Of a stretch of DNA of 64,000 nucleotides, positions 2,576 through 45,000 are shown one piece after another. The notes beneath the pieces are model-generated. The model was given only the letters and a program-made list of their open reading frames with translations, did no database searches and was not told the origin of the DNA. This DNA comes from an uncultured Bacteroidales bacterium. Its GTDB lineage: Bacteria; Bacteroidota; Bacteroidia; Bacteroidales; UBA4417. The stretch lies in the NCBI GenBank assembly GCA_903879715.1, contig CAIRMR010000016.1, positions 3,115-67,114 on the forward strand. Reading direction: 5' to 3'. Both the position numbers and the translations under genes were made by a program. The stretch's first letter is position 1, and each line of letters starts with the position of its first letter.

Positions 2576-3775
2576 TTAAGCTGTTACAATTTCAAATGTA
2601 TCCTGAGCAATAACAAGTTCCTCGTTGGTTGGAACCACCATTACGGTAACTTTTGAATTTGGTTTGCTTATGATCGCTTCTTTCCCACGGAGTTTGGTGT
2701 TTTTCTCCACATCAAATTCAATACCCATAAATTCGAGGCCACCGGCAACTTCCTGGCGGGTTTCCCAGCCATTTTCGCCAACGCCACCGGTAAATATCAC
2801 TACATCAACGCCACCCATTGCGGCGGCATACGATCCAAGGTATTTTTTAATCCTGTAGTGATAGATATCCAGCGAAACCTGAGCCCTGTGATTGCCTTCT
2901 CCGGCAGCGGTTTCTATATCGCGCATATCGCTCGAAACACCTGATAACCCAAGCATCCCGCTATGTTTGTTGATTAAAGTGCTGGTGTATGGAATGCTGA
3001 TTTCTTCCTTATCAGCAATGTACAATAATGCGCCTGCATCGATATCCCCGCTGCGGGTTCCCATAACAAGTCCTTCAACCGGTGTCATTCCCATCGAAGT
3101 ATCGAATGATTTACCGTTTTGTATGGCACACATCGAAGCGCCGTTTCCAAGATGGCAGCTGATAATTTTAATATCCTCAAGTTTTTTACCGAGGATTTCG
3201 GCGGCACGTTGGGCAACAAACCGATGGCTCGATCCATGAAAACCATAGCGACGGACTTTATACTTTTCGTACAACGAATAAGGAATGCCGTAAAGGTATG
3301 CCTGCTCGGACATGGTTTGATGGTAGGCTGTATCAAAAACGGCTACCTGCGGAACTTCAGGCAATAATTTGTTGATAGCATAAATGCCTTCGAGGTTTGG
3401 CGGATTGTGCAAGGGAGCCAGGTCGATACATTCAACAAGTGCCGCAATAACTTCTTTAGTAATTGCTACACTGCTGTTATACATTTCACCGGCATGAACT
3501 ACACGATGCCCTACAGCACTGATTTCGTTCAGGTTTTTAACACAGCCGTACTCTTTATGTGTCAGGATTCCCAGAACAAACTCTATACCAGCCTGGTGAT
3601 CAAGTATTTCGCCTTCAAGTTTAAGCACATCTCCATTAGCCATATTATGCTTAATGGATGCGCCTTTCAGCCCGATTTTATCAACCAGGCCCTTTGCAAC
3701 TACTTCTGCTGAAGGCATTTCGAAGAGTTGATATTTAATGGATGAACTTCCGCAGTTCAGAACTATAATCTTCAT
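2576..3775 (-). CDS. ackA: Acetate kinase
   Basis: VLNCGSSSIKYQL, GHRVVH, APLHNP, VFDTAYH, RRYGFHG, HLGNGAS, FTGGVGEN, PTNEEL. Confidence 0.97.
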   Translation of the reverse strand: MKIIVLNCGSSSIKYQLFEMPSAEVVAKGLVDKIGLKGASIKHNMANGDVLKLEGEILDHQAGIEFVLGILTHKEYGCVKNLNEISAVGHRVVHAGEMYNSSVAITKEVIAALVECIDLAPLHNPPNLEGIYAINKLLPEVPQVAVFDTAYHQTMSEQAYLYGIPYSLYEKYKVRRYGFHGSSHRFVAQRAAEILGKKLEDIKIISCHLGNGASMCAIQNGKSFDTSMGMTPVEGLVMGTRSGDIDAGALLYIADKEEISIPYTSTLINKHSGMLGLSGVSSDMRDIETAAGEGNHRAQVSLDIYHYRIKKYLGSYAAAMGGVDVVIFTGGVGENGWETRQEVAGGLEFMGIEFDVEKNTKLRGKEAIISKPNSKVTVMVVPTNEELVIAQDTFEIVTA

Positions 3776-3805
3776 TGGATAATCTTTTTTAACAGAATTG
3801 AATTA

Positions 3806-4780
3806 TTACCGATATTCAGGACATGTGATCGTACTTTCGACGATTTTACCATGTGAATCATATTTATAGAAACCTTGTCCGGAAGCTTTTCCCAGATAAT
3901 TAGCACGAACGAGACGCTTTAAGACAGGTGAAGTTTTATAGCCATGTTCTCCGAATTCGTTATAAAGGTTATCCATCCATTTCTGTAATTTATCCAATCC
4001 GACTTTGTCGGCACGTTCAAAAGGACCAAACTGATGGCCAAGGCTGGTTCGCATTATTTCGTCGATATCCTGGGCCGAAGCAATTCCTTCCATCAGCATT
4101 TCACATGCCTGGTTGATAATAACACATAACATGCGGGTTGTAATGTTGCCGGGAGATTCCATTAGGGTAATCGGCTTCTTTTCGAGCATACGAACAAATC
4201 GAGTGACAATTTCGAAAGCTTCATCCGATGTACGGGAACTCCTTACTACCTCAAGCACTTTTACATCATCCGTTGGTGACATAAAATGAAGTCCTACCGC
4301 GCGATCAGGATATTCGAGCCCGGAGGCAAGGTCGGAAACCATTAGAGTGGCCGTATTCGATGCCAGGATTGCATTGCGGCGCACAAATTTTTCAGCCTTC
4401 TGAAGTATTTCTTTCCTTATTTCAAGACTTGTGCCTGGTTTGCGTGAATTAATGACTTCGAAAACGATATCACAGTCAGCCAGATCGTTGTATTCAATAG
4501 TCCCTTTTATGCGCGACATAATAAGACGTTTCTCACTGTTGGTCATTCCCCAGCGAAGAATTTCTTTATCAATCATGCGTGTAATCCCTTCGAGGCCAGC
4601 CGAAACACGCTTTTCATCCAGATCAAGACATACCACATCAAAGCCATGCTGACTGATCGTTTTTGCAATTTCCTGGCCCATGGATCCACAGCCGATAATT
4701 CCTATCTTGTGAATAGAGCCATGTTGTTTTGGACTTTTGGTTAGACTGAAATCTTCCAGTTTTCCGATAATTTCTGACAT
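3806..4780 (-). CDS. 3-hydroxyacyl-CoA dehydrogenase family protein (divergent active site)
   Basis: GCGSMG Rossmann motif, ASNT, GLHF, GPFERADKVGLD, LGKASGQGFYKY. Confidence 0.85.
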   Translation of the reverse strand: MSEIIGKLEDFSLTKSPKQHGSIHKIGIIGCGSMGQEIAKTISQHGFDVVCLDLDEKRVSAGLEGITRMIDKEILRWGMTNSEKRLIMSRIKGTIEYNDLADCDIVFEVINSRKPGTSLEIRKEILQKAEKFVRRNAILASNTATLMVSDLASGLEYPDRAVGLHFMSPTDDVKVLEVVRSSRTSDEAFEIVTRFVRMLEKKPITLMESPGNITTRMLCVIINQACEMLMEGIASAQDIDEIMRTSLGHQFGPFERADKVGLDKLQKWMDNLYNEFGEHGYKTSPVLKRLVRANYLGKASGQGFYKYDSHGKIVESTITCPEYR

Positions 4781-4874
4781 CTTTTTATGAAATATTTATT
4801 AGTTAATTTCAATCAAATAAGGCGCATTAATCAATAAATCAATATTTTACAAATAATGATCCCTAATTCCGGTG

Positions 4875-4882
4875 CAAAGGTA
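4875..4882 (-). promoter_or_regulatory. -7 promoter element for the dehydrogenase-ackA operon
   Basis: TACCTTTG on the minus strand about 95 nt upstream of the start. Confidence 0.6.
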
Positions 4883-4972
4883 AAATTTATTTGACGGTTA
4901 TGGAATGGAAACTGTTAATATTTTCACAGAAGATCTTGAAATTGTTGGTTACGGGATTTAAGGGTTCATAGA

Positions 4973-5278
4973 TTCAAGGTTCAAGGGTTCCTGCTTCGTT
5001 CCTCGCAGTGACAGGTTCAAGGGTTTCAGCGGGACCATTTTCTATTTTCCATTTTCTATTCACTTCTTTTCAAGGTTCAAGGGTTTCAGCTTCGTTCTTC
5101 GCAGTGACAGGCTCAAGGGTTTCAGCGGGACCATTTTCTATTTTCCATTTTCTATTTACTTCTTTTCAAGGTTCAAGGGTTCCTGCTTCGTTCCTCGCAG
5201 TGACAAGTTCAAGGGTTTCAGCGGGACCATTTTCTATTTTCCATTTTCTATTCACATCTTTTCAAGGTTCAAGGGTTC
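4973..5278. repeat. Tandem repeat, 96-bp unit x3 plus a partial unit
   Basis: ttcaaggttcaaggg starts at 4973, 5069, 5165 and 5261; units near-identical. Confidence 0.95.
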
Positions 5279-5516
5279 AAATACCTAAACCCTTGTTGTA
5301 GGCTCCGGCTCAAAAATCACAAAGTTTAATTCACAAATCACGATTCACAAATCACAAATTTATCCTGAGCAAAGTCAAAGCGCACAAATCCATTCCCTAA
5401 CCCCCAACACCCAAATCTTAAACCCTAAACCCTTAATTGTTAATAATTTTAAATTCAAGCCTCAAAAAAATGAATCATCAGCCCATTCTATTTATGTAAT
5501 TTTGCATTTCCTTACT

Positions 5517-6404
5517 ATGAACGACTCTATCATTCGATATCAGTATAATCCGATGCTTACCGATACGGTAGGATTTTTTGATTATTGCATTCCCCTGACG
5601 AATGAAAACTTTTTTACGAAAGCTGATTCGCTGCAGAAATATTACGATTTCAGCATTTACAATTTTATTACCCCACTTCCGCCTCAGAAGCAATTTCTCC
5701 CTACGACTTCAGTTTTCAAGCCGCATAACCTGGAGCCAAAGCACTCAGGACCAATGGCCATTGACCAACAGGCGACCAACTGGATCACCATTGTATTCCT
5801 TGCCTGCCTATTTATCTTCGCATGGATTCAAGCTACTTATTCGAAACGGCTTAGCCAGATTTTTCGTGCTGTTGCTCAGCCTCATCATGTAAATCAACTG
5901 GAGCGTGAAGGCAATATATTTAAGGAACGAATTGCGCTGGGTCTGGGATTGAATTATTACCTGATAATGTCAATTTTCATTTTTCAGATTATCAGTGCTT
6001 TTGGAGGCCTTCCGACTGATCTAAATAATCTGACCCTCACCGGAATTATTTTCACAGGTCTATTTGCTTATCAGTTACTAAAATCACTGGTAATTCATGG
6101 CACCGGGATTATATTCAACACCAGCGAATACGCCAGGCAATATCAACTTATCTTACTGATTTTCAATTATATGATCGGAATAGTTTTGTTTCCGGTTGTA
6201 GTAATAGCATTTTATTGGAACAATTCGGCTTTCTTAATTGCTGGCATTATAATAATCTCATTATTAATTCTTTATCGGATAATTAGAAGTTTTTTAACTG
6301 GTCAGGACAATAAGAGCTACAATTTGTTTTATTTATTTTTATACCTTTGCACCCTCGAAATTTTACCCTTGTTGCTCATTTATAAAGCCATAAGCAAAAT
6401 GTAG
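5517..6404 (+). CDS. DUF4271 family membrane protein
   Basis: Multiple TM helices, C-terminal FYLFLYLCTLEILP, position upstream of hemD; ATG 5517 follows TAATTTTG at 5497-5504. Confidence 0.85.
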   Translation: MNDSIIRYQYNPMLTDTVGFFDYCIPLTNENFFTKADSLQKYYDFSIYNFITPLPPQKQFLPTTSVFKPHNLEPKHSGPMAIDQQATNWITIVFLACLFIFAWIQATYSKRLSQIFRAVAQPHHVNQLEREGNIFKERIALGLGLNYYLIMSIFIFQIISAFGGLPTDLNNLTLTGIIFTGLFAYQLLKSLVIHGTGIIFNTSEYARQYQLILLIFNYMIGIVLFPVVVIAFYWNNSAFLIAGIIIISLLILYRIIRSFLTGQDNKSYNLFYLFLYLCTLEILPLLLIYKAISKM

Positions 6405-6450
6405 AGTTAGATCTTTTTTCTCTAAATTGTAATACATAAATATCGTTAAC

Positions 6451-7209
6451 GTGTCGAAAATCAAGAGCATACTGGTGTCCCAACCTGTTCCGGCAGATTT
6501 GGAAAAATCTCCTTATGGTGAGATTATTAGGAAACACGGAGTGAACATTGAGTTTATTAAATTCTTTAAGATCGAAGGCGTTTCTGTGCGTGAGTTTCGT
6601 GATGAGAAAGTTTATATAAACGAACACACTGCTATCATTTTCAACAGCAAACATGCTGTGGATCATTTTTTCAGTATCGCCAAAGATGTTAGGGTTGAGA
6701 TTCCTGAAACAATGAAATACTTCTGTATGTCAGAATCAGTGGCTTTTTACCTGCAGAAATATGTTCAGTTCCGCAAACGTAAAATCTTCTTTTCCGAGAA
6801 TGATGTTTCGCAATTAATGGACTTAATCAGGAAGCACAAAACCGAACGTTTTTTACTTCCCTGTTCCGACAACCACAGCAAAGAATTACCTGATTTGCTG
6901 GAAGCCGCTAAAATTAATTTCAGCGAAGCAATTCTGTACCGCACTGTTCCCAACGAAATGAAAGAGTTGATCGATATTTCCAAATTCGATATGCTTGTTT
7001 TTTTCAGTCCGCAAGGTATACGGTCACTTTTTCACAACTGGCCTGATTTTATCCAAGGCGAAACAGCCATTGGTACATTCGGGACTACAACCAACCTAGC
7101 GGCTAACGAAGCCGGACTTACAGTAAATATATCAGCTCCCAGCCCGGCTACACCTTCAATGACAATGGCCATTGACGCTTACCTTTCAAAGTACCAGAAA
7201 AAGTCGTAA
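6451..7209 (+). CDS. hemD: Uroporphyrinogen-III synthase (HemD-like)
   Basis: KIKSILVSQP, AVDHFF, MKYFC...A.YLQKY..RKRKIFF, FFSPQGI, PSMTMA typical of the Bacteroidota HemD family; GTG start. Confidence 0.88.
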   Translation: MSKIKSILVSQPVPADLEKSPYGEIIRKHGVNIEFIKFFKIEGVSVREFRDEKVYINEHTAIIFNSKHAVDHFFSIAKDVRVEIPETMKYFCMSESVAFYLQKYVQFRKRKIFFSENDVSQLMDLIRKHKTERFLLPCSDNHSKELPDLLEAAKINFSEAILYRTVPNEMKELIDISKFDMLVFFSPQGIRSLFHNWPDFIQGETAIGTFGTTTNLAANEAGLTVNISAPSPATPSMTMAIDAYLSKYQKKS

Positions 7210-7230
7210 AGATTTCATCAAAATATTTTA

Positions 7231-7264
7231 AAGACCCCGTTTATACAAATAGACGGGGTTTTTT
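7231..7264 (+). terminator. Intrinsic terminator after hemD
   Basis: accccgttt...agacggggt stem followed by a T tract. Confidence 0.8.
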
Positions 7265-7344
7265 AATGATATTTAACTATTATGAACCTTGAGTTCTAAC
7301 AGCTACCACCGGAAATCATTAATTTTGTAGTGTTAAAACATCCG

Positions 7345-7752
7345 ATGCTTAGTTCAGCTAAAAGTAACACCTTCCGCAAACCTGAAAAAATCTGTAATCA
7401 AAACCAGATAGATAGTCTGTTCAAAGATGGCAAATCAATTAAATCAGGACTATTCCGGTTGCTTTTTGTGAAAACTGAAACACCTGGAAAATCACCGGTG
7501 CAGGTGCTGATCGCTGTTCCAAAAAAAAACCTGCGACACGCGGTAGACCGTAACCGGATGAAACGCCTGATTCGTGAAGCGTACAGATTGAGTAAACATA
7601 AACTTCTGGATGAATACTCAGTTGCCGGAAAACATCTTGATATTGCCATCATTTTTATGGGCAAACAATGTGTTTCCCAATCAGATACACTAACCGCAAT
7701 AAATATATTACTGGATCGTTTAATACAGGTACATGAAAAAAATCCTGAGTAA
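7345..7752 (+). CDS. rnpA: Ribonuclease P protein component
   Basis: [25 protein letters not shown] (RNR motif). Confidence 0.95.
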
Positions 7753-7954
7753 AATAATGATTGGTGGCATACGGTTTTACCAGTATACCATTTCTCCGTA
7801 TTTGCCTCCTTCGTGTCGCTATACACCTTCCTGCTCAGCATATGGAATTGAGGCGCTCAGGAAACATGGCCCGTTTAAAGGCGGATGGCTGACGATTAAA
7901 AGAATCGCTTCCTGCAATCCATGGGGAGGTAGCGGATATGATCCGGTGCCGTGA
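7733..7954 (+). CDS. yidD: Membrane protein insertion efficiency factor
   Basis: YQYTISP...[19 protein letters not shown]...[13 protein letters not shown]. Confidence 0.96.
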
Positions 7955-8126
7955 GTGAGTGAAAAATTAATAGAAATAAGTTAACAGAAAATAGTTCTTT
8001 CAAATACACTCAGTGTAAAAAGGGTTAATGATTGCGGAAACAAACGTGCTTGATTGTTTGTTTTATACTTTACCTTAAACCCTGAGAGTAAAAAAGGTCT
8101 AATCACAACAATAAAAATCACAATCA

Positions 8127-35324: not shown

Positions 35325-36314
35325 ATGAAGATAAGTCGTGAACTCAAGATAGGTGCCTTCGGTATTGTTACATTAGCGCTTTTCATTATTAGTGTAAACT
35401 TTATTAAGGGCAAGGATTTATTTAACAGGAATCGCACCTTCTATGCTGTGTATGATGCCACATCAGGTATTCAGGAAGCAGCTTCGGTAACTGTAAGCGG
35501 GCTTGAAGTGGGAAAGGTTACGGATATGAGGTTTCTGACTAAAAATTCAAAGAAGGTTTTAATAGAACTTACTATTTCCAATAAAGTATTTATTCCCTCA
35601 AAATCAGTTGCCCGCATTACCAGCCTCGACTTGTTGGGAACCAAAAATATTGAAATTATATTCAGCGATGCCAACACCGAAGCACTCGACGGCGATACAT
35701 TAGTTGGCGGATCACAACTGTCGCTGCAGGAAGAAGTTAACAAGCAGGTTGCTCCAATAAAACTCAAAGCCGAAAACCTGCTTTCGTCACTCGACACCAT
35801 GGTTACCGTACTTCAATCCGTTTTTAATGCCGATACACGTAAAAACATTACCGCTTCATTCTTGAGCATACGTTCAACGCTGAGCAATCTTGAAAGTACC
35901 ACTTACAACCTGGATACATTGGTATATGGTCAAAAGAAACGGCTTGAGCGAATTATGTTCAATGTTGAGTCGATCACAGAAAATTTTCGTAAAAACGACG
36001 AAAACATTTCAAATATCCTTACAAATTTCTCACTATTAAGCGATACGCTTGCAAAAGCTAACCTGGCAGGCACACTTAAGAATGTTAACATTGTACTTTC
36101 AAGAGTGGAAGCTATTACTACTAAAATCAATAATGGTGAAGGAACAATCGGCATGCTGGTGAACGACCAGAAATTGTATGACAACCTGAATAAATCGGCA
36201 TCCCAACTCAATGCTTTGATCGAAGATATGAAGCTCAATCCTTACCGGTATGTGAATATCTCAGTATTCCCGCCATCCAAAAAGAGAATGATATACACGG
36301 AGCCGGTTAAGTAA
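35325..36314 (+). CDS. MlaD/MCE family protein
   Basis: ELKIG TM, GLEVGKV, DLLGTKNIEI, coiled coil, GTIGMLVND..LY.NL...DMKLNPYRYV. Confidence 0.92.
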   Translation: MKISRELKIGAFGIVTLALFIISVNFIKGKDLFNRNRTFYAVYDATSGIQEAASVTVSGLEVGKVTDMRFLTKNSKKVLIELTISNKVFIPSKSVARITSLDLLGTKNIEIIFSDANTEALDGDTLVGGSQLSLQEEVNKQVAPIKLKAENLLSSLDTMVTVLQSVFNADTRKNITASFLSIRSTLSNLESTTYNLDTLVYGQKKRLERIMFNVESITENFRKNDENISNILTNFSLLSDTLAKANLAGTLKNVNIVLSRVEAITTKINNGEGTIGMLVNDQKLYDNLNKSASQLNALIEDMKLNPYRYVNISVFPPSKKRMIYTEPVK

Positions 36315-36332
36315 GCTGAGTCTATTGGAAGT

Positions 36333-36466
36333 ACAAGAGATAGAGCGAGAGGGGCGACAAAGCGAGGGGCGACAAGAGATATAGTGAGGGGGCGAGGGGT
36401 GACAAAGCGAGGGGCGACAAGAGATATAGTGAGGGGGCGAGGGGCGACAAAGCGAGGGGCGACAAG
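36333..36466. repeat. G-rich tandem repeat, 45-bp unit (~3 copies) with internal 15-bp subrepeat
   Basis: gagggg(c/t)gacaaagcgaggggcgacaag at 36349, 36394 and 36439. Confidence 0.92.
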
Positions 36467-36569
36467 AAGAGAGCAATTAAAAAACATTGAGGCTGAATTT
36501 CTGATATCTGTACGATAGGATTTTTGCTTATTTCCCAAAAAATTACATCAGAAAGCAATTACTTAAAAA

Positions 36570-38234
36570 TTATTTCACTTCCTGGTTTTTTATTGTTTTC
36601 AGAGATTTAACCGGCATCTTAGAAGGTGTCGCAATTGGCTCTTTGGTGGGTTCTTTGGTTGGTGGTTCCGTTACCTGTTCCCTGGATTGCAGCCTGGCTT
36701 TCGCGTATAATTCCTCATCTACGTTTCGAAAAACATCATCCTTTTCAAGCGGCCTGGATGTAAAGCGCCAGTTAAATCCTTTAAGCATGCGTTGGTCGGT
36801 GGGGACATCTTTATCGGGAAACATATTTCCAGCCGGTTTGTCAAAATATAAAATGCGCTCAATCTTACTATCTTTCACATCCAGCCTCATACGGCTACCG
36901 GAAGCCTTATTAACACCTATCAGTTTTAAGTCGGCTTCGCGCACATAATAAACTGTTTCAGCATTTCCGTTTACATCAATCGTCGACAATTCATTTTTCA
37001 CGAAATGCCCTACCATGTTCTTACCCCTGATCTGGTTATAGGCTTCGGTTGTATCCTTCGAAACAATAAAAGCAGTGCTGTTCATATATATTTCCCTGAT
37101 GCGGTTTTTGCCCGTCAGTATACGCATGGTATCAGCGGTAAGCTGGTTTTTACCCGACCATAAAACCGGCATACGGTACATGCTGATAAGTGAATCGGCA
37201 AAATTATAATGAAGCGAATCGCAGGCTCCCTGGATATCATTCCGGTAAAAACGGGTGTTGTGGTATGCAAATAATTCTTTAGTCTCGTTTCTGGTTGTAT
37301 CAAAAGTAGCTTTTAACGTATCTGCATGAAGATAAAGCGTGTCTGCTTTATCACCCATAATAGCAACCGCCTCATTTGTAAACAGGGTATAGCCTTTGAT
37401 ACGCCAGTATTCGGCAAAGTTTCCTTTAATAATTACATCCTGGATGGTATCAGTCATTACAACATGATTAACAGCCTTCCCATAATGAAGTTTCTCGTTA
37501 TAATACAGGCTGTCGCCGGTTAAGCGGCGGTTATCATCAACCAACAACGCATTTATGCTAAACCTCGATTTACTTGTTGCACGGTTGTATTCACCATCTT
37601 CACAATACAGGTAATTGTCCTTGCCTTTTAGTATGGTAGGGCCCAGGAAATAGGATATCCTCGAAACTGTATTGTATTTCAATGTATCGCAGTTGATTTT
37701 ATATTCCGGGTTTGTGAGTACCACATCATCGCGGAAATACATCAGTTTTTGGCTGGTATAATAAAAACATCGCTGGCTGGTAAGTATATTGTCGCCATTT
37801 ACCATTTTACCACCGGTAGTATAGCTTGCAATATTCGTGTTACGGTCAAAATTCATTATATTCGTAGTGAGGGTAGTTTGTTTATCAACCAGTTTCACAT
37901 CGTCGCGAACAACAGCCATTTTAGTATTGCCGTCATAATGAAGAAATTTCCCGAAAAGGTTTAAGGTATCACTCGATTTAATACGCACATGGCCATAGCA
38001 GTCCATTGTATTGGATATTTCGTATAACCAGGCACTATCGCAATACAGGTATGCTCCCTCATGTTCAAAAACAGGATTATTAAGTGCCCTCGTCATGTCG
38101 CCAAGATTGCTCGAATGCCTCAGTTCTCCTGCAGTCATGCGTATGCGGGTTTTTTGAGCGTGCACAGATTGATGCACTGACAAAAGTATCAGCGATGAAA
38201 TTACAAATACAAGGAAGATGGTTTTTTTTGACAT
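36570..38234 (-). CDS. OstA-like (LptA/OstA beta-jellyroll) protein
   Basis: LYCDSA, LHYDGNT, DTLKYNT, DTLYLHADTL, QGACDSL, PVLW...QLTADT, NQIRGK; TACCTTTG promoter at 38254-38261 (minus). Confidence 0.88.
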   Translation of the reverse strand: MSKKTIFLVFVISSLILLSVHQSVHAQKTRIRMTAGELRHSSNLGDMTRALNNPVFEHEGAYLYCDSAWLYEISNTMDCYGHVRIKSSDTLNLFGKFLHYDGNTKMAVVRDDVKLVDKQTTLTTNIMNFDRNTNIASYTTGGKMVNGDNILTSQRCFYYTSQKLMYFRDDVVLTNPEYKINCDTLKYNTVSRISYFLGPTILKGKDNYLYCEDGEYNRATSKSRFSINALLVDDNRRLTGDSLYYNEKLHYGKAVNHVVMTDTIQDVIIKGNFAEYWRIKGYTLFTNEAVAIMGDKADTLYLHADTLKATFDTTRNETKELFAYHNTRFYRNDIQGACDSLHYNFADSLISMYRMPVLWSGKNQLTADTMRILTGKNRIREIYMNSTAFIVSKDTTEAYNQIRGKNMVGHFVKNELSTIDVNGNAETVYYVREADLKLIGVNKASGSRMRLDVKDSKIERILYFDKPAGNMFPDKDVPTDQRMLKGFNWRFTSRPLEKDDVFRNVDEELYAKARLQSREQVTEPPTKEPTKEPIATPSKMPVKSLKTIKNQEVK

Positions 38235-38430
38235 AATCAGTTCAAATCGGCTGCAAAGGTAAGTAATGTAAGCTAATAGTAAGACAGGGCAAATTGATGT
38301 TTTGGATTAGTCAGCAGTAAATTAAGAGGTTTTAACTTTTGCTGAAAATCATTTAAAAACAATTCAAATATTTATCTTGCGTGATTAAAAGATATTTCTA
38401 CATTTGAGCCGGTTTAAACCTTTCTTTCAA

Positions 38431-40398
38431 ATGGCTCAGAATATAGATCCAAAGCGCAACTACGAAGAAACCAGGCACAAAACCGGTTATGTTACCCGCG
38501 GGGAATCCACACAGGAAACATACGATCGCCTTGGTTTTATGTCGGGACTCGAAGTACACCAGCAACTAAAAACATCTCAAAAACTTTTTTGCCGTTGCCC
38601 GGCCGGAATATACCAGAAACCAGGCGATTTCGATGCCGAAGTAATCAGGCATATGCGGCCAACCCTGAGCGAATTGGGCGAATACGACGGCACTGCTCTG
38701 ATGGAGTTCAAAACCCGTAAAAATATCATTTACAGGTTGAAAAGCAAAACAAGCTGTACGTATGAAGTTGATGATACGCCACCGTTTCCCCTCAACCGCG
38801 AAGCATTATCCATCGCCATCGAAATATCACTGGTATCGAAACTGAATATAGTTGGCGAAGTGCATATTACGCGAAAACAATACCTCGACGGGAGTATTCC
38901 TACAGGATTTCAGCGAACGGCAATAATCGGCGTTGAGGGTGAAATACCGCTCAGGAATAAAAAAATACGCCTTATCCAGCTCAGTCTCGAAGAAGATTCG
39001 TGCCGCGAAGTAAGCGATATCGGTCACACAAGGATTTACCGGACTGACCGCCTCGGAATGCCGCTCATCGAAACAGTTACCTATCCGGATATGACCAATC
39101 CTGATGAGGTAAAGGAGGCCTGTAATTATATCCGTTTCCTGGGGCGTAGCACAGGCAAGGTGCGCACAGGAATTGGTGCCGGCCGCCAGGATGTGAATGT
39201 GAGCTGCAAAGGCGGCACCAGGGTCGAAATAAAAGGTGTAGCTCATAGCCGCTGGATACCTGAACTTACTCATAACGAATGTTTCCGCCAATGGGCGTTG
39301 TTGTCAATCCGGGATTTGCTGAATGCCCGTTTCCCGGATTGTAAACTATGGAACCTGACTCATGTTTTGTTGGATTTACATGCGTTCAATTCGAAAAATG
39401 GATTTACGAAAGATGCCAAAGCCAATGGATTTAAACTTGTAGCCGTAAACCTGCCGGGATTTAAAGGAATTCTTTCGCATTTCACACAGCCGGGCAAAAT
39501 GTTTGCTAACGAACTTAGTGAAAGGCTAAAGGTAATTGCTTGCATTGAATTTCCCAATATGACTCATAGCGAGGAAATAGATCCATTATTTACACCAGTT
39601 GATTGGGAAAAAGCAAATATTCTTCTGAAACCATCTGAAAATGACGCTCAGCTAATTTTCCGCGGACCAGAAGAAGATATTAAAACAGCAATCGAAACCA
39701 TTGAGGAACGCTGCCGTATGGCATTTGCAGGTGTTCCGCCCGAAACCCGTAAATCATTCGAAAACGGAACTACTATTTTCGAGCGTGTATTACCTGGCGC
39801 CGACCGCATGTATCCGGATACCGATTCAGCGCCGATTCCATTGGAAAACGATTACATAGAATCATTAAGTAAAAACCAGCCGGAAGAAGTTATTTTACGC
39901 TATAAACGACTGAAAGACTGGAATATTCCGGAAGACTGCTACACCTATATTTTCAAAAAGAACCTGTTCCCGCTAATCGAAAGGATCATAACCGAATTGG
40001 ATTTGAATCCTGCTTTTGTTGGCAAATTCTTCGGGCACGCGGTAAAATGGGTCGAAGGACAATACAAACCAACTGCCGAATTTGATTATAAGATCATCTA
40101 CGCTTTACTACGGTTTATAAAGCAACGGAATCTAGACATAAGCATTGCCCGGCGTATGTTACCTCAAGTGTATCAGTATCCTAAAATGGAATTCGAATCT
40201 GCACTTACTAGTATGAATTATAAAGCCGTTGCTAAAGAACAGATTGTTTCGAAAATCCCTTTCCTCAGGAATAAATTTGCTGAAATAAGGCTTTCAAAAG
40301 GACCGGATGTAGAGCATAACTGGATTATGGGTCAATTGCGCCGGCAGGCTGAAGGAAATATGAGTCTGAGGGAGTTGCATGAAGCTGTAAGGGATTAG
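38431..40398 (+). CDS. gatE: Glu-tRNA(Gln) amidotransferase subunit E
   Basis: GLEVHQQL.T..KLFC, R..RPTLSELGE.D, DDTPP, DGS...GFQRTA, LEEDS, DRLGMPLIE, RQDVNVS..GG.RVEIKGV, central GAD-like insertion, PGADRMYPDTD. Confidence 0.92.
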   Translation: MAQNIDPKRNYEETRHKTGYVTRGESTQETYDRLGFMSGLEVHQQLKTSQKLFCRCPAGIYQKPGDFDAEVIRHMRPTLSELGEYDGTALMEFKTRKNIIYRLKSKTSCTYEVDDTPPFPLNREALSIAIEISLVSKLNIVGEVHITRKQYLDGSIPTGFQRTAIIGVEGEIPLRNKKIRLIQLSLEEDSCREVSDIGHTRIYRTDRLGMPLIETVTYPDMTNPDEVKEACNYIRFLGRSTGKVRTGIGAGRQDVNVSCKGGTRVEIKGVAHSRWIPELTHNECFRQWALLSIRDLLNARFPDCKLWNLTHVLLDLHAFNSKNGFTKDAKANGFKLVAVNLPGFKGILSHFTQPGKMFANELSERLKVIACIEFPNMTHSEEIDPLFTPVDWEKANILLKPSENDAQLIFRGPEEDIKTAIETIEERCRMAFAGVPPETRKSFENGTTIFERVLPGADRMYPDTDSAPIPLENDYIESLSKNQPEEVILRYKRLKDWNIPEDCYTYIFKKNLFPLIERIITELDLNPAFVGKFFGHAVKWVEGQYKPTAEFDYKIIYALLRFIKQRNLDISIARRMLPQVYQYPKMEFESALTSMNYKAVAKEQIVSKIPFLRNKFAEIRLSKGPDVEHNWIMGQLRRQAEGNMSLRELHEAVRD

Positions 40399-40660
40399 GA
40401 ATTTGGATTTAGGTTTTAGTATCTAATCTTTTAAGTTGATGTTTTTTCTGGCACAATATTTCAGGAAGAAATTAAAAACATTAAACACAAAACACAAAAT
40501 GCAAAAGTATCGCACGCTCCCTTACTTTAGTGTTTATTATTCTGTGTTTTATGTTTTTCATTACTTTTTAATTCTGGCTTGTCCAGGTTAGGTTATAGGG
40601 ATTGCAGGATAGGGATTAGAAATAGAATCGTAAATCGTACTTCAAAAATCGAAAATTAAA

Positions 40661-42046
40661 ATGACTGACGATATTTTTCAGGGATACAAAGGTTTAGCAC
40701 TCGAAGTACTAAAGAAATACAATGTTCGCGTTTGGGGACAGGCTGTTATTAAAACTACTCGTGGTGAATTTGTAGGAACAGTACTTCCACGGTCCGAAAA
40801 TGATGATGACAGGCATATTGTAATGAAAATTCCTACCGGATACAATATCGGCCTTGATATCGCCACCATTGCCGGAATGAAAGAAACCGGCTATAAAAAA
40901 GCAAATTATAAAATTCCTGAAAAAGAATTTCCATATACCGAAGGATTACCGAAAGTAAAATTGATTGGCACCGGCGGTACTATTGCTTCGCGTCTGGATT
41001 ACCGCACCGGAGCTGTTATTCCTGCATTTTCGCCTGGCGAATTGTATGGCGCGGTTCCCGAACTGGCATCCATCTGCAACCTGACGACAGAGAAAGTCTT
41101 CGCTGTTTTCAGCGAAAATATGTCGCCGGATCATTACAAAAAGTTAGCGATTGCCATTGGCAAAGAAATTGAAGCCGGGGTTGATGGAATTGTAATCGGA
41201 CATGGAACAGATACACTGCATCACACTGCTGCCGCACTTACTTTTATGGTACAGAATTCACCGGTACCCATCGTGCTTGTAGGCTCTCAGCGTTCGAGCG
41301 ACCGCCCCAGTTCCGATGCAGCACTCAACCTGATGCACGCCTGTACGGCCGCCGGGCATGGCGACATAGCCGAAGTTATGGTTTGCATGTTTGGCCCTAC
41401 CAGTGATGAATATGGGTTTCTTCACAGGGGTACGCGTGTGCGAAAAATGCATTCGTCGTACCGATCGACTTTCCGTACAATAGGAGATACGCCATTAGCT
41501 ACCATCACGCGTAAAGGGCTGAAACCAATTAAGGAAACTTACAACCACAGGCGAAAAGACCGAAAAGTAACCATTTTACCCTATTTTGAAGAGAAAGTAT
41601 CAATCGTATATTATTACCCAAATATGCAGCCTGATATTATTGATTCACTGGTGGAGCATGGATATAAAGGAATAGTGATTGCCGGCACCGGTCTGGGACA
41701 TGTAAACAAGCCACTTTATCCGGCAATTGAGAGAGCCGCCAAAGCCGGCGTTGCCGTTTATATGACCGTTCAAACGCTTTGGGGATATGTGCATATGTTT
41801 GTTTATGATACAGGTCGCGACCTGATGGCGCTAGGCGTTGTGCCGTCCGAAAATATGCTGCCCGAGGTTGCTTATATAAAGTTAGGGTGGGCGTTGGGAC
41901 AAACCAGCGACCTGGAAGAAGTAAAACGGATAATGCTTGCGCCAATTAACGACGAAACTACTCCCCGCGAACCCTACAATGGGTACCTGATATACCAGGG
42001 CGGAGTAACAGAAGTAGAGGATTTTATAAGGAAGGTGCATAAATAA
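40661..42046 (+). CDS. gatD: Glu-tRNA(Gln) amidotransferase subunit D
   Basis: N-terminal GatD_N-like domain (G..LP...IVMKIPTGYNIG), TGGTIASRLDYRTGAV, HGTDT, GSQRSSDRPSSDA, RGTRVRKMHSS, MLPEVAYIKLGW.LG. Confidence 0.93.
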   Translation: MTDDIFQGYKGLALEVLKKYNVRVWGQAVIKTTRGEFVGTVLPRSENDDDRHIVMKIPTGYNIGLDIATIAGMKETGYKKANYKIPEKEFPYTEGLPKVKLIGTGGTIASRLDYRTGAVIPAFSPGELYGAVPELASICNLTTEKVFAVFSENMSPDHYKKLAIAIGKEIEAGVDGIVIGHGTDTLHHTAAALTFMVQNSPVPIVLVGSQRSSDRPSSDAALNLMHACTAAGHGDIAEVMVCMFGPTSDEYGFLHRGTRVRKMHSSYRSTFRTIGDTPLATITRKGLKPIKETYNHRRKDRKVTILPYFEEKVSIVYYYPNMQPDIIDSLVEHGYKGIVIAGTGLGHVNKPLYPAIERAAKAGVAVYMTVQTLWGYVHMFVYDTGRDLMALGVVPSENMLPEVAYIKLGWALGQTSDLEEVKRIMLAPINDETTPREPYNGYLIYQGGVTEVEDFIRKVHK

Positions 42047-42097
42047 TTCTTATCCGGAGTACGACCCGGTTTCACACCCTGAATAAGAATTGCTGTC

Positions 42098-45000
42098 TCA
42101 ATACATAGCGGGATAAAGCAATTTATCAATTGTTCCAAGCAATTTACTTTTACTTATCGGTTTTATTATATAATCATTACAACCGGCTAACCTTGCGGCA
42201 GCTTCATCGTCGGAAGAAATTAAACCTGAGAGAGCAATAATTGGCAAATCCGGCCGTATTTTCCTGATCTCTCTGGCTGATTCGAAGCCATCCATCCCAG
42301 GCATTTTCATATCGGTAAGTATGATACTTATTTCCGGAAAGTTCCGGCAGATTTCAATTGTTTCAAATCCATTGTAGGATCTAAAAACTTTAAAAGAAGC
42401 CTTTTTAAGAACAATTTCCAGGTATTTATAGTTGGAGTCATCATCTTCAGCAACAAGCACTATAAGGTTTTCGGGTTGAGCGGCCACTTCAACATCAGTT
42501 ATTTCTGCCGGAATTGATTTTTTTTCAGGCAGAGTGAAGCAGAATGTAGATCCTTCACTATTTGAGGATTCCACCCAAATTTCGCCGCCTAACAGTTTTA
42601 CAAATCCTTTTGCAATGGATAAGCCCAAGCCACTTCCTTCATATTCGCGGGAGGCTGATATATCGGCCTGCCTGAAAATCTCAAATATTACAGGCAGGGT
42701 TTCATCTGATATTCCCCGGCCTGTATCGCGAACAGAGAAAAGATGATTCCCGTCTTTGAAATCATAAGCTAAGGTTATGGACCCTTCTTTTGTAAACTTT
42801 ATCGCATTATCAATAAGGTGCGAAATTATTTTAGTCAGAAGAATCTCATCTGTCAGAATCCGGACCTCATTTTCAGGAGTTTTTAATATAATCTCCAGGT
42901 TCAGATTCCGTGAGGTAAAAGTATCAAAAGTCTGGTCTGTTATTTTTTCCAGAAGAGGTTTAAGGTTTATGGGGTATTTGTTGATTTCGGTAATTCCCGA
43001 CACAATCATCGAAATATCCATATAATTGGTAATGGTATTGATGAGCCTGGCACTACTTTTTTTAATCATTTTGTTGAACTCAATCCGATCCTCCTCTGAA
43101 CTGTCCATTTGCGTAATCATCTCACTGAATCCAATAATGCCATTCAGCGGGGTACGCAACTCATGAGTAATATTCTGGAGGAAAGCAGATTTAAGCTTAT
43201 CATTGGATTCTGCATATTCCTTGGCTTTCAAAAGCTCTTCACGGGCTTGTTTGCGTTCAGCAATATTACGGAATACACCTTGCAGAATCTGCCTTCCGTT
43301 AAGTTTCATTGTATTGGAAAGGACTTCAACCGGGATTTCGGTGCCGTCCGAACGAAGAATAACAGTTTCAATCGCAAACAGATCGCTAATGTTACGGACT
43401 TCATCAACATGTTTCCGGAATGATTTTTTCGAATGTTCAAAATACCTGGATGGATGAATCATGGTTTGGTGTAATGTCCTGATTTCATCCAGGGTGCGAC
43501 CAAGCATATTGCAAGCTGCAGTATTGGCATCTACAAGCATTCCGGTTTCAATATCGGCGAGAATTATAGCATCAGGTGATGCTTCAAAAAGCTCCCTGTA
43601 CCTTTCCTCACTTTCTTTTAATGCAGTTTCCGACTGAAGCCGTTTCGAGATATCTTCTTTAATTCCAAGGTAATGTGTTATTTTACCCTCAGCATCTTTA
43701 ATAGGCAATATTGAAGCGCTTTCGCAGAAATTTTCGCCATTTTTCTTTTTGTTATAAAAAATGCCGTTCCATTCTTTTCCTGCTTTTAAAGCTCGCCATA
43801 ACGATTTATATACATCCTGGGTTGTTTCACCAGATTTAAATATGGCTGGACTTTTCCCGATTAATTCATTAAAACTATAGCCCGAAATATTGCAGCCTGC
43901 CGGGTTCACATATTCCATTTTCCCATCAAGATCTGTTATAATAATTGTGTTCGGGCTTTGCTGAACTACTGCGGAAAGTTTACGTAATTCTTTTTCCGCC
44001 AGATAGCGTTTGCTGATATCCCGGCTCACACCCCTGTAACCTGAAATTTTTCCGGACTGATCATAAACCGGGACACCACTGGTTTCAACATGTACCAGAT
44101 GCCCGTCGCGGTGTTTATATTTATTAACCAAAAGGTAAAAAGGAAGCGTATTTTCTTCTGTCGACTCAATCCTGGCGTTTATCTCCGATAAAAATTCATC
44201 AGAGATAAAGTCGTAAGGTGATTTCCCTATGGTTTCCTCTGGTTTATAATCCAGGATAATCTCAAACTGTGGGCTAACATATCGGTACAAGCCATCAGCA
44301 TCGGTTTCCCATATTATATCAGAAGTAGATTCTACCAATGATTTATACTTTTCTTCGCTTTGCCTGAGTGTTTCTTCCGACTTTTTACGTTCAGTAATAT
44401 CGCGTATGATAGATTGGTAAGTCCCATCTGGCATCATTTTAGTATGCATTTCGATAGGGACAATATTGCCGTCACGCCGAAGTATGTCCCGCTCACTGAT
44501 TACCGTTTTGTCTTTTTTCAACAAATCGTATCTCAATGGCTTGTTTTTCAATACTTTTTGATCGAATAATTCAATTATATTAATCCCGATCAGGTTTTTC
44601 AGCGTTCGGCCGGTTAGCTTTTGCATGTAGGTATTTGCCTGGATGATAACGCCTTCCGGCGAACCGATTAAAATACCGTCGACGGCAAGTTCAATAAGTT
44701 CCCTGAAACGCCTTTCGCTGGTTTGCAAAGCTACATCAGCTTGTTTGCGTTCGGTGATATCCTGTGCCATAGCAATATTTACTTTTTTCCCAAAGTACGT
44801 GCCGTTGACAACACGCACTTCTTTTGGAAAAATTTCGCCATTTGACCTCAGACCCCAGAATTCAAATTGCTGTGGTTCGCCGGCAAAGGCCTTCTCAATC
44901 ATAGCCGCAATTGTCTCCATGTCATTTTTGCCAGGAGCAGCTACAAAAGAAGGATTTTTACCAACCAATACTTCATACGGATATCCGTACAGTTTTACGG

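Follow-up and report, generated by a model that had tools for sequence, protein, structure and literature searches.

Complete gatE and gatD genes of a bacterial-type lineage in an uncultured Bacteroidales genome, with remodelled tRNA-facing elements in GatE

The window analyzed here, a 64,000-nt stretch of contig CAIRMR010000016.1 from assembly GCA_903879715.1 (an uncultured Bacteroidales bacterium, UBA4417; 223 contigs, completeness 99.56%), encodes both subunits of the tRNA-dependent amidotransferase GatDE; all positions below are window coordinates. Several publications describe GatDE as archaea-only or as an archaeal signature (PMC2330236, 2008; PMC2811023, 2009; PMC8007984, 2021; PMC8762117, 2022; PMC9499178, 2022). 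The window genes are instead old residents of bacteria, and we consider it most likely, with moderate confidence, that they encode a working tRNA-dependent amidotransferase that operates beside GlnRS with altered tRNA recognition. What the analysis shows is the identity, fold, residue conservation, selection and distribution of the pair, together with the set of synthetases in the genome; its activity, substrate and role we infer. The two genes are:

38431..40398, + strand: gatE, kinase/transamidase subunit, 655 aa from ATG (assigned by NCBIfam GatE equivalogs, fold and conserved residues)
40661..42046, + strand: gatD, asparaginase-type glutaminase subunit, 461 aa (assigned by NCBIfam GatD equivalogs and Pfam domains)

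The mechanical open reading frame (ORF) of gatE spans 38404-40398 (+; 664 aa from TTG) and lies on the same strand as the gatD ORF, but the start is most likely the ATG at 38431-38433 rather than the TTG at 38404, because tblastn alignments to relatives start at residues 1-20 of the TTG-started translation and the Atlas copy of the protein begins at residue 10. GatE passed two NCBIfam equivalog models, NF003107 narrowly (458.8 bits, cut-off 456) and TIGR00134 more comfortably (390.8 bits, cut-off 319.55), while the GatB models gave it only 50-119 bits, all below their cut-offs of 315-680. GatD likewise passed the equivalogs NF003217 (498.9 bits, cut-off 310) and TIGR02153 (496.4 bits, cut-off 324). 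Pfam domains were GatB_N in GatE, and GatD_N, Asparaginase and Asparaginase_C in GatD. Against solved structures, GatE scored 289 bits with Methanothermobacter thermautotrophicus GatE and 273 with Pyrococcus abyssi GatE, compared with at most 71 for GatB, and GatD scored 390 and 379 bits with two GatD chains, compared with at most 130 for asparaginases. GatD shares its fold and catalytic residues with the type I L-asparaginase AnsA (378 bits to TIGR00519), but unlike AnsA it carries the additional GatD_N domain, scores higher with the GatD equivalogs, and comes from a family with a neighboring gatE in most loci, as described below.

The predicted proteins are also intact. An alignment of 106 GatE sequences has 36 invariant columns, and the window GatE matches all of them (36/36), among them E41, H43, K51, E187, E188, R252, D254, N256, S258 and K268. 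In GatD, T104, T107, T183, D184 and K262, which we take to be the catalytic set by way of the asparaginase motifs TGGT, HGTDT and RK, are each kept in 80/80 relatives. An AlphaFold (AF2) model of GatE built on the 106-sequence alignment had a predicted local distance difference test score (pLDDT) of 94.2 and a predicted template modelling score (pTM) of 0.91, and aligned to the archaeal chains 2d6f_D at Z 38.1 (513 residues) and 1zq1_C at Z 34.6. Full-length GatB chains aligned over model residues 32-655 at Z 27-31, consistent with a homologous cradle, helical and tail fold, and AspRS chains matched residues 304-434 with their insertion domain (Z 10-11). This AspRS-like insertion is the domain that separates GatE from GatB; GatB lacks it, carries an NMEE insert at its 3_10 turn, and has the amidase GatA and GatC as partners. 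The window proteins resemble archaeal GatDE (M. thermautotrophicus, 2D6F; P. abyssi, 1ZQ1) in having two subunits, a GatE with the predicted domain order cradle, AspRS-like insertion, helical and tail, a short loop in place of the GatB 3_10 turn, and a GatD made of GatD_N and an asparaginase fold with the Thr/Thr-Asp/Lys residues. Together these comparisons confirmed the two as complete, full-length GatE and GatD orthologs by predicted sequence, not GatB and AnsA. A preliminary description of this DNA had already proposed full-length genes with intact catalytic motifs, a proposal that holds up, and the equivalog, solved-structure and fold comparisons all favored GatE and GatD over the clustering with GatB and AnsA that would have spoken against it.

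Related loci indicate that the pair is no one-off. At least 562 stretches with coding sequence for a GatD relative turned up when one genome per species was scanned, and the best 80 of these, to which the counts of related loci given here refer, were 78-97% identical, with labels such as Lentimicrobiaceae, Prolixibacteraceae, Salinivirgaceae and Marinifilaceae. Carriers include the isolates Marinifilum flexuosum, M. fragile, Ancylomarina longa and two Labilibaculum strains, and some loci lie on closed chromosomes. In 71/80 loci gatE is directly upstream of gatD on the same strand, and 4 of the 9 others have too little upstream DNA to judge; the spacer has a median of 42 nt and measures 75 nt or less in 58/71. 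When ORFs of at least 100 aa from the 80 loci were clustered, no conserved third partner was found: only gatD (80/80) and gatE (71/80) were common, the next real gene families reached at most 16/80 loci, and some larger clusters were antisense ORFs within gatE or gatD. No tRNA gene was found in two extra loci that were examined. Of 24 further genomes in the same genus, 21 have a GatE above cut-off and 2 more have one truncated at a contig end; elsewhere in the order, 4 of 16 other families gave a GatE above cut-off. Among 301 high-quality genomes sampled from the phylum, 14 were carriers including the window's, the other 13 all lying outside its class. The pair is present across the lineage, cultured bacteria included.

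Two carriers have glnS close to the pair. In one from another class (L141, G092:C45:505000-518000, positions 2918-7961), glnS (+) and gatE-gatD (-) are convergent with their ends a few bases apart, and in another (G268) glnS and gatE-gatD are about 8 kb apart.

Both genes are under strong purifying selection. Relative to L020, the nearest relative with unsaturated synonymous divergence (dS about 1), the ratio of nonsynonymous to synonymous substitution (dN/dS) was 0.058 for gatE and 0.015 for gatD, and no stop codons were seen interrupting either gene. These values, and a promoter box that recurs upstream of gatE in relatives (see below), support the view that the genes have long been domesticated, as the preliminary description had suggested.

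Phylogenetic analysis placed the window GatE within a bacterial group. A search of 1.84 billion representatives returned 604 proteins at E<=1e-30, and trees split GatE proteins into a bacterial-type and an archaeal-type group. Near the bacterial-type representative P0011, the 14 organism-named matches among 120 listed were all bacterial: Deltaproteobacteria, Aminicenantes (3), Desulfaltia, Bradymonadales, KSB1, Krumholzibacteria, Calditrichaeota, Ignavibacteriae (2), Planctomycetes and "bacterium" (2). Around P0046, which is the closest row of the archaeal type, the 29 organism-named matches were all archaeal, those above 60% identity being Heimdallarchaeota, "Asgard group", Thorarchaeota and one Bathyarchaeia, and the nearest Atlas clusters to the deep archaeal-type row P0053 were 100% archaeal. 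In a careful tree of 73 rows (GatB-rooted, LG+G4; support given as ultrafast bootstrap [UFBoot]/Shimodaira-Hasegawa-like approximate likelihood ratio test [SH-aLRT]), the bacterial-type clade had support of 100/100, as did the Bacteroidales clade inside it that holds the window GatE. All bacterial-type rows share cradle residues that differ from the archaeal ones, for example M75, T88, T110, Y111, D115, F119, Y151, I156, P157, C191 and D463, and the window cradle, unlike that of archaeal GatE, bears bacterial-type signatures such as DDTPPF and DGSIPTG.

The position of the bacterial-type clade relative to archaea was less clear. The Asgard-labelled P0046 was its sister in the careful tree (98/89), and the archaeal rows came together in 0/200 bootstrap trees; even so, the best tree in which they were held together exceeded the free search by 4.7 in log-likelihood, and the approximately unbiased (AU) test did not reject that arrangement (p 0.54 for the careful tree, p 0.80 for a quick tree). 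The GatB root was placed differently in three trees. The clade may thus either be nested next to Asgard-like GatE or form the sister group of archaeal GatE as a whole, and we name no donor because the root shifts between data sets and the AU tests do not reject archaeal rows held together. The second placement, should it prove right, would also touch on the question of whether GatDE existed before the two domains diverged. Under either rooting the window genes are old residents of bacteria.

These results contradict the idea that this genome or genus recently received the genes directly from an archaeon; the preliminary description had proposed an inter-domain transfer, but the window does not record one into this genome. 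A recent transfer would agree with reviews that call GatDE archaea-only, and GC content is slightly raised at 38-42 kb (0.43, vs 0.36-0.42 elsewhere in the window). It is nevertheless extremely improbable, because the genes fall inside a large bacterial-type GatDE clade with members from many phyla, with 100/100 support for it and for the Bacteroidales clade within, and the window GatE is only 29-36% identical to archaeal-type rows. Across five named relatives, identities of GatD (87, 89, 82, 80 and 83%) and GatE (67, 72, 59, 58 and 66%) roughly follow in rank those of GlnRS (73, 72, 69, 69 and 68%), and the promoter box and an LptD-like neighbor are common to other genera.

The genomic setting differs from that of archaeal GatDE. 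The host encodes GlnRS (745 bits), AsnRS (630.8 bits), one GluRS and three AsnB-type asparagine synthetases over cut-off; profile searches of the genome found no GatB besides gatE itself and no GatA over cut-off, and AsnA was not found. Checks for glnS, asnS and gatCAB had been proposed in the preliminary description, and the inventory leaves GatDE, on paper, not needed, because GlnRS, AsnRS and three AsnB-type synthetases are present. GlnRS was found in 14/14 GatE-positive genomes of the phylum sample and in 5/5 named relatives, so that among the genomes checked GatDE is never the sole visible route to Gln-tRNAGln. GatB was also present in 12/13 GatE-positive genomes outside the window's class, and absent from the host and from 7/7 sampled genomes of the same order. 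A similar coexistence of a tRNA-dependent amidotransferase with direct GlnRS and AsnRS is described for Deinococcus, Thermus and Bdellovibrio, where B. bacteriovorus is predicted to be an asparagine auxotroph (PMC4206432); in those bacteria the enzyme is GatCAB, unlike the GatDE of the host, which also has AsnB-type synthetases.

Two further sequences in the genome bear a distant likeness to amidotransferase subunits. The only GatA-like sequence is a 563-aa amidase-family frame at G000:C211:12708-13964, with 193.8 bits to the GatA model (cut-off 481), and a type-I-asparaginase-like frame at G000:C55:12224-13261 has 184 bits to the GatD model and one in-frame TAA.

The tRNA genes are of bacterial type. 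Both of the host's own tRNAGln genes have U1-A72 and A73, no archaeal-type tRNAGln was found among its 38 tRNAs, and tRNAGln(UUG) had U1-A72 in 16/16 relatives (11 GatE-positive, 5 GatE-negative), two of which, one from each category, had G73. The preliminary description had set the archaeal A1-U72 pair against a bacterial U1-A72, and the contrast is present here. The host tRNAAsn is likewise U1-A72. According to PMC2811023, bacterial GatCAB reads U1-A72 tRNA, as the host tRNAGln has.

Some of these genes sit near one another. At G000:C117:21460-29690, a single contig carries glnS, tRNAGln(CUG) 81 nt downstream of glnS, and gltX within 8 kb, and in relatives (e.g., G023, G024, G017) a tRNAGln-like 74-nt match is situated 80-800 nt away from gltX. 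Only one tRNAGlu(UUC) was found (G000:C5:15891-15963), and ARAGORN draws its first pair as a G1-U72 wobble.

If GatDE acts on this tRNAGln, it must read a bacterial substrate, and two GatE elements thought to contact the tRNA appear to have been remodelled throughout the Bacteroidales clade. In PMC2811023, GatE is described as having a short, conserved, basic loop where bacterial GatB has a 3_10 turn next to the first base pair, and a tail domain that faces the tRNA D-loop. The window GatE loop next to pair 1-72 has the GatE-type length, lacking the 2-residue insert of GatB, but its residues differ from those of archaeal GatE. Residue counts were made over 27 Bacteroidales, 37 other bacterial-type and 42 archaeal-type rows. 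Position 246 is Thr in 25/27 Bacteroidales rows; the 37 other bacterial-type rows have Arg there in 18 cases and Thr in 16, and in archaeal-type rows it is Arg in 39/42. Position 235 is Arg in 27/27 Bacteroidales, vs Gly in 42/42 archaeal-type rows. In the tail, archaeal-type rows carry the motif M..(R/K)-G-(K/R)..G (M in 40, R/K in 38, K/R in 36 and G in 36 of 42), and at the same positions it occurs in 28, 25, 33 and 30 of 37 other bacterial-type rows and is seen as KGKA in GatB; Bacteroidales rows have R..A..G-N..L in its place (A640 in 25, G642 in 27, N643 in 26 and W631 in 27 of 27). The preliminary description had raised altered tRNA specificity as one consequence of its transfer scenario; with two tRNA-facing elements remodelled clade-wide, such a change is plausible. 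In addition, the tail and GAD regions fall below Pfam detection, a further difference from archaeal GatDE.

In the mechanism we favor, the gatE-gatD pair of the bacterial-type lineage would probably be read from a Bacteroidota -7 promoter, and GatD, through its asparaginase fold, would release ammonia from Gln or Asn, by homology with the archaeal enzyme. GatE would phosphorylate the side-chain carboxyl of Glu esterified to tRNAGln and then amidate the Glu to Gln. Because it runs beside GlnRS, the enzyme would not be the sole supplier of Gln-tRNAGln but an accessory one, serving as a second route or clearing up Glu-tRNAGln. It would have to read a tRNAGln with U1-A72 and A73, a need that fits the clade-wide remodelling of the first-pair loop and of the tail motif facing the D-loop.

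Several observations weigh against this proposal. GatDE activity looks redundant because GlnRS is present in all carriers checked. No source of Glu-tRNAGln is evident from the host's genes: there is a single GluRS and no second copy in the genome, and it has Arg at the position aligned with Thermus thermophilus Arg358, as do 16/16 GluRS examined (from 9 carrier and 7 non-carrier genomes). We take Arg at this position to be a mark of discriminating enzymes. No tRNAGln variant tracked the presence of GatE between the 11 GatE-positive and 5 GatE-negative genomes. The pair is also partly dispensable, as GatE was not found in one 2.3-Mb genome of the same genus that is 91% complete (1/24), and GatDE was not found in 12/16 other families of the order, nor, within the phylum sample, in any of 7 further genomes of the same order (or in any of 67 genomes of the same class). 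Finally, the Pfam GAD domain had no sequence-level match in the window GatE, and Pfam GatB_Yqey had no match at E<=1, compared with 76-88 bits in two archaeal GatE and 19.9 bits in the bacterial-type representative P0011, although residues 598-655 of the GatE model align to a YqeY protein at Z 5.4.

Several of these same points would suit the main rival to this proposal, an enzyme that kept its kinase and amidotransferase chemistry but turned to another carboxylate, such as that of some other aminoacyl-tRNA, of an RNA resembling tRNA or of an acceptor that is not a tRNA, and lost its role in making Gln-tRNAGln. Beyond the constant presence of GlnRS in the carriers checked, the discriminating-type Arg in 16/16 GluRS, the missing source of Glu-tRNAGln and the silent GatB_Yqey profile, such a change of function is suggested by the long stem of the Bacteroidales GatE clade (0.41-0.54 changes per column), by the replacement of a tail motif common to archaeal GatE, other bacterial GatE and GatB, and by the exchange of Arg246 for Thr in the first-pair loop. 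We nonetheless regard it as possible but on balance improbable: GatE has lost none of the 36 family-invariant residues of its cradle domain, the model retains the four-domain layout, the 80 loci show no conserved third gene beside the pair, and a tRNAGln pair 1-72 that differs from the archaeal one could alone explain the remodelling.

An Asp-tRNAAsn amidotransferase, providing a tRNA-dependent route to Asn in place of a missing GatCAB, is much harder to defend. The absence of GatB from the host and from all seven sampled genomes of its order would agree with such a role, as would the U1-A72 pair of tRNAAsn; but AsnRS is present, three AsnB-type synthetases score over cut-off, all but one of the 13 GatE-positive genomes in other classes have GatB as well, and archaeal GatDE is specific for Glu-tRNAGln according to PMC2811023, so that we consider this role very improbable. 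The tRNA-dependent Gln or Asn route offered by the preliminary description is, on paper, not required in a genome so equipped, and all 16 GluRS examined have the discriminating-type Arg.

The bacterial GatDE lineage has consequences beyond this genome. Evolutionary scenarios of how Gln-tRNAGln is formed and of why archaea lack GlnRS depend on GatDE being archaea-only, a statement contradicted by a large, selected bacterial GatDE lineage that exists beside GlnRS and often GatCAB too. Public annotation already names bacterial proteins GatE, and no published description of GatDE in bacteria was found in the literature searched, supplements aside; bacterial GatE sequences are thus known to databases but apparently not discussed in the literature. 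The lineage raises the question of what purpose a second Glu-to-Gln route on tRNA serves, and it provides naturally occurring variants of the two GatE elements presumed to recognize pair 1-72 and the D-loop of the tRNA, while cultured carriers (Marinifilum, Labilibaculum, Ancylomarina) make experiments feasible. A bolder and rather unlikely version would have the Bacteroidales GatDE, its tRNA-reading parts rebuilt, perform tRNA-dependent amidation other than routine Gln-tRNAGln supply, for example to mend mischarged tRNA in certain conditions or to amidate some other acceptor, as a member of an old bacterial-type lineage that would leave GatDE no archaeal signature.

The sequences around and between the two genes contain two further features:

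38399..38406, + strand: Bacteroidota-type -7 promoter box TACATTTG, 25 nt upstream of the gatE ATG (putative promoter function)
40416..40603, strand not assigned: multicopy palindromic repeat, similar to miniature inverted-repeat transposable elements (MITE) or repetitive extragenic palindromes (REP), about 190 nt, between gatE and gatD

The -7 element had been proposed at this position in the preliminary description, and its sequence is as given there. The word itself is near chance in the window (82 TANNTTTG observed vs 77.3 +/- 10.3 expected), but TAnnTTTG occurs 29-50 nt upstream of the inferred gatE start in 29/63 related loci examined, and at -32 to -37 in the nearest relatives although flanking sequence has diverged; because of this recurrence we accept TACATTTG as a probable promoter box.

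The repeat accounts for the unusual 262-nt gatE-gatD spacer, in which a MITE/REP-like insert appears to have settled. Within it, a 44-nt imperfect palindrome spans 40466-40509 and 40523-40566. The repeat has 28 further blastn matches in the host genome, of which 10 run to 160 nt or more with 89-96% identity, and several of the 28 sit at contig ends. In 4 runs, contig depth spiked 5- to 8-fold at 40416-40601, with many differing loose ends. The repeat might divide the operon or contribute its own signals; no Rfam match at E<=1 was found in 38200-42200.

Neighbors of the pair are Amidase_3, MlaD and OstA/LptD-like genes and two hybrid sensor kinases, in keeping with the ordinary Bacteroidota surroundings described previously. 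The OstA/LptD-like upstream neighbor recurs beside gatE in 10 loci, and the downstream PAS hybrid kinase recurs at full length and 64-77% identity in four (L020-L023), with only partial matches of 25-30% in L042, L032 and L028.

This conservation also bears on whether the locus might be an assembly chimera, a binning contaminant or a decaying relic. The assembly is in 223 contigs, no single public contig was found across the gatE-gatD spacer, and public short-read contigs break inside it; these breaks occur because the multicopy repeat sits there. The outer junctions, by contrast, are spanned by public contigs from runs of different studies (X1 at 36000-40444 and 41020-44500; X3 and X6 at 38043-38455; X7 at 41950-44500), so that the chimeric assembly allowed for in the preliminary description was not found at either outer junction. 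With the same flanking genes in 10 and 4 independent assemblies, the pair present in isolate and single-contig genomes, low dN/dS in both genes and no stops, an artefact or relic is barely credible. Between the MlaD-like and OstA-like genes (36355-36401), the X1 contig skips 45 nt, a length variant among strains.

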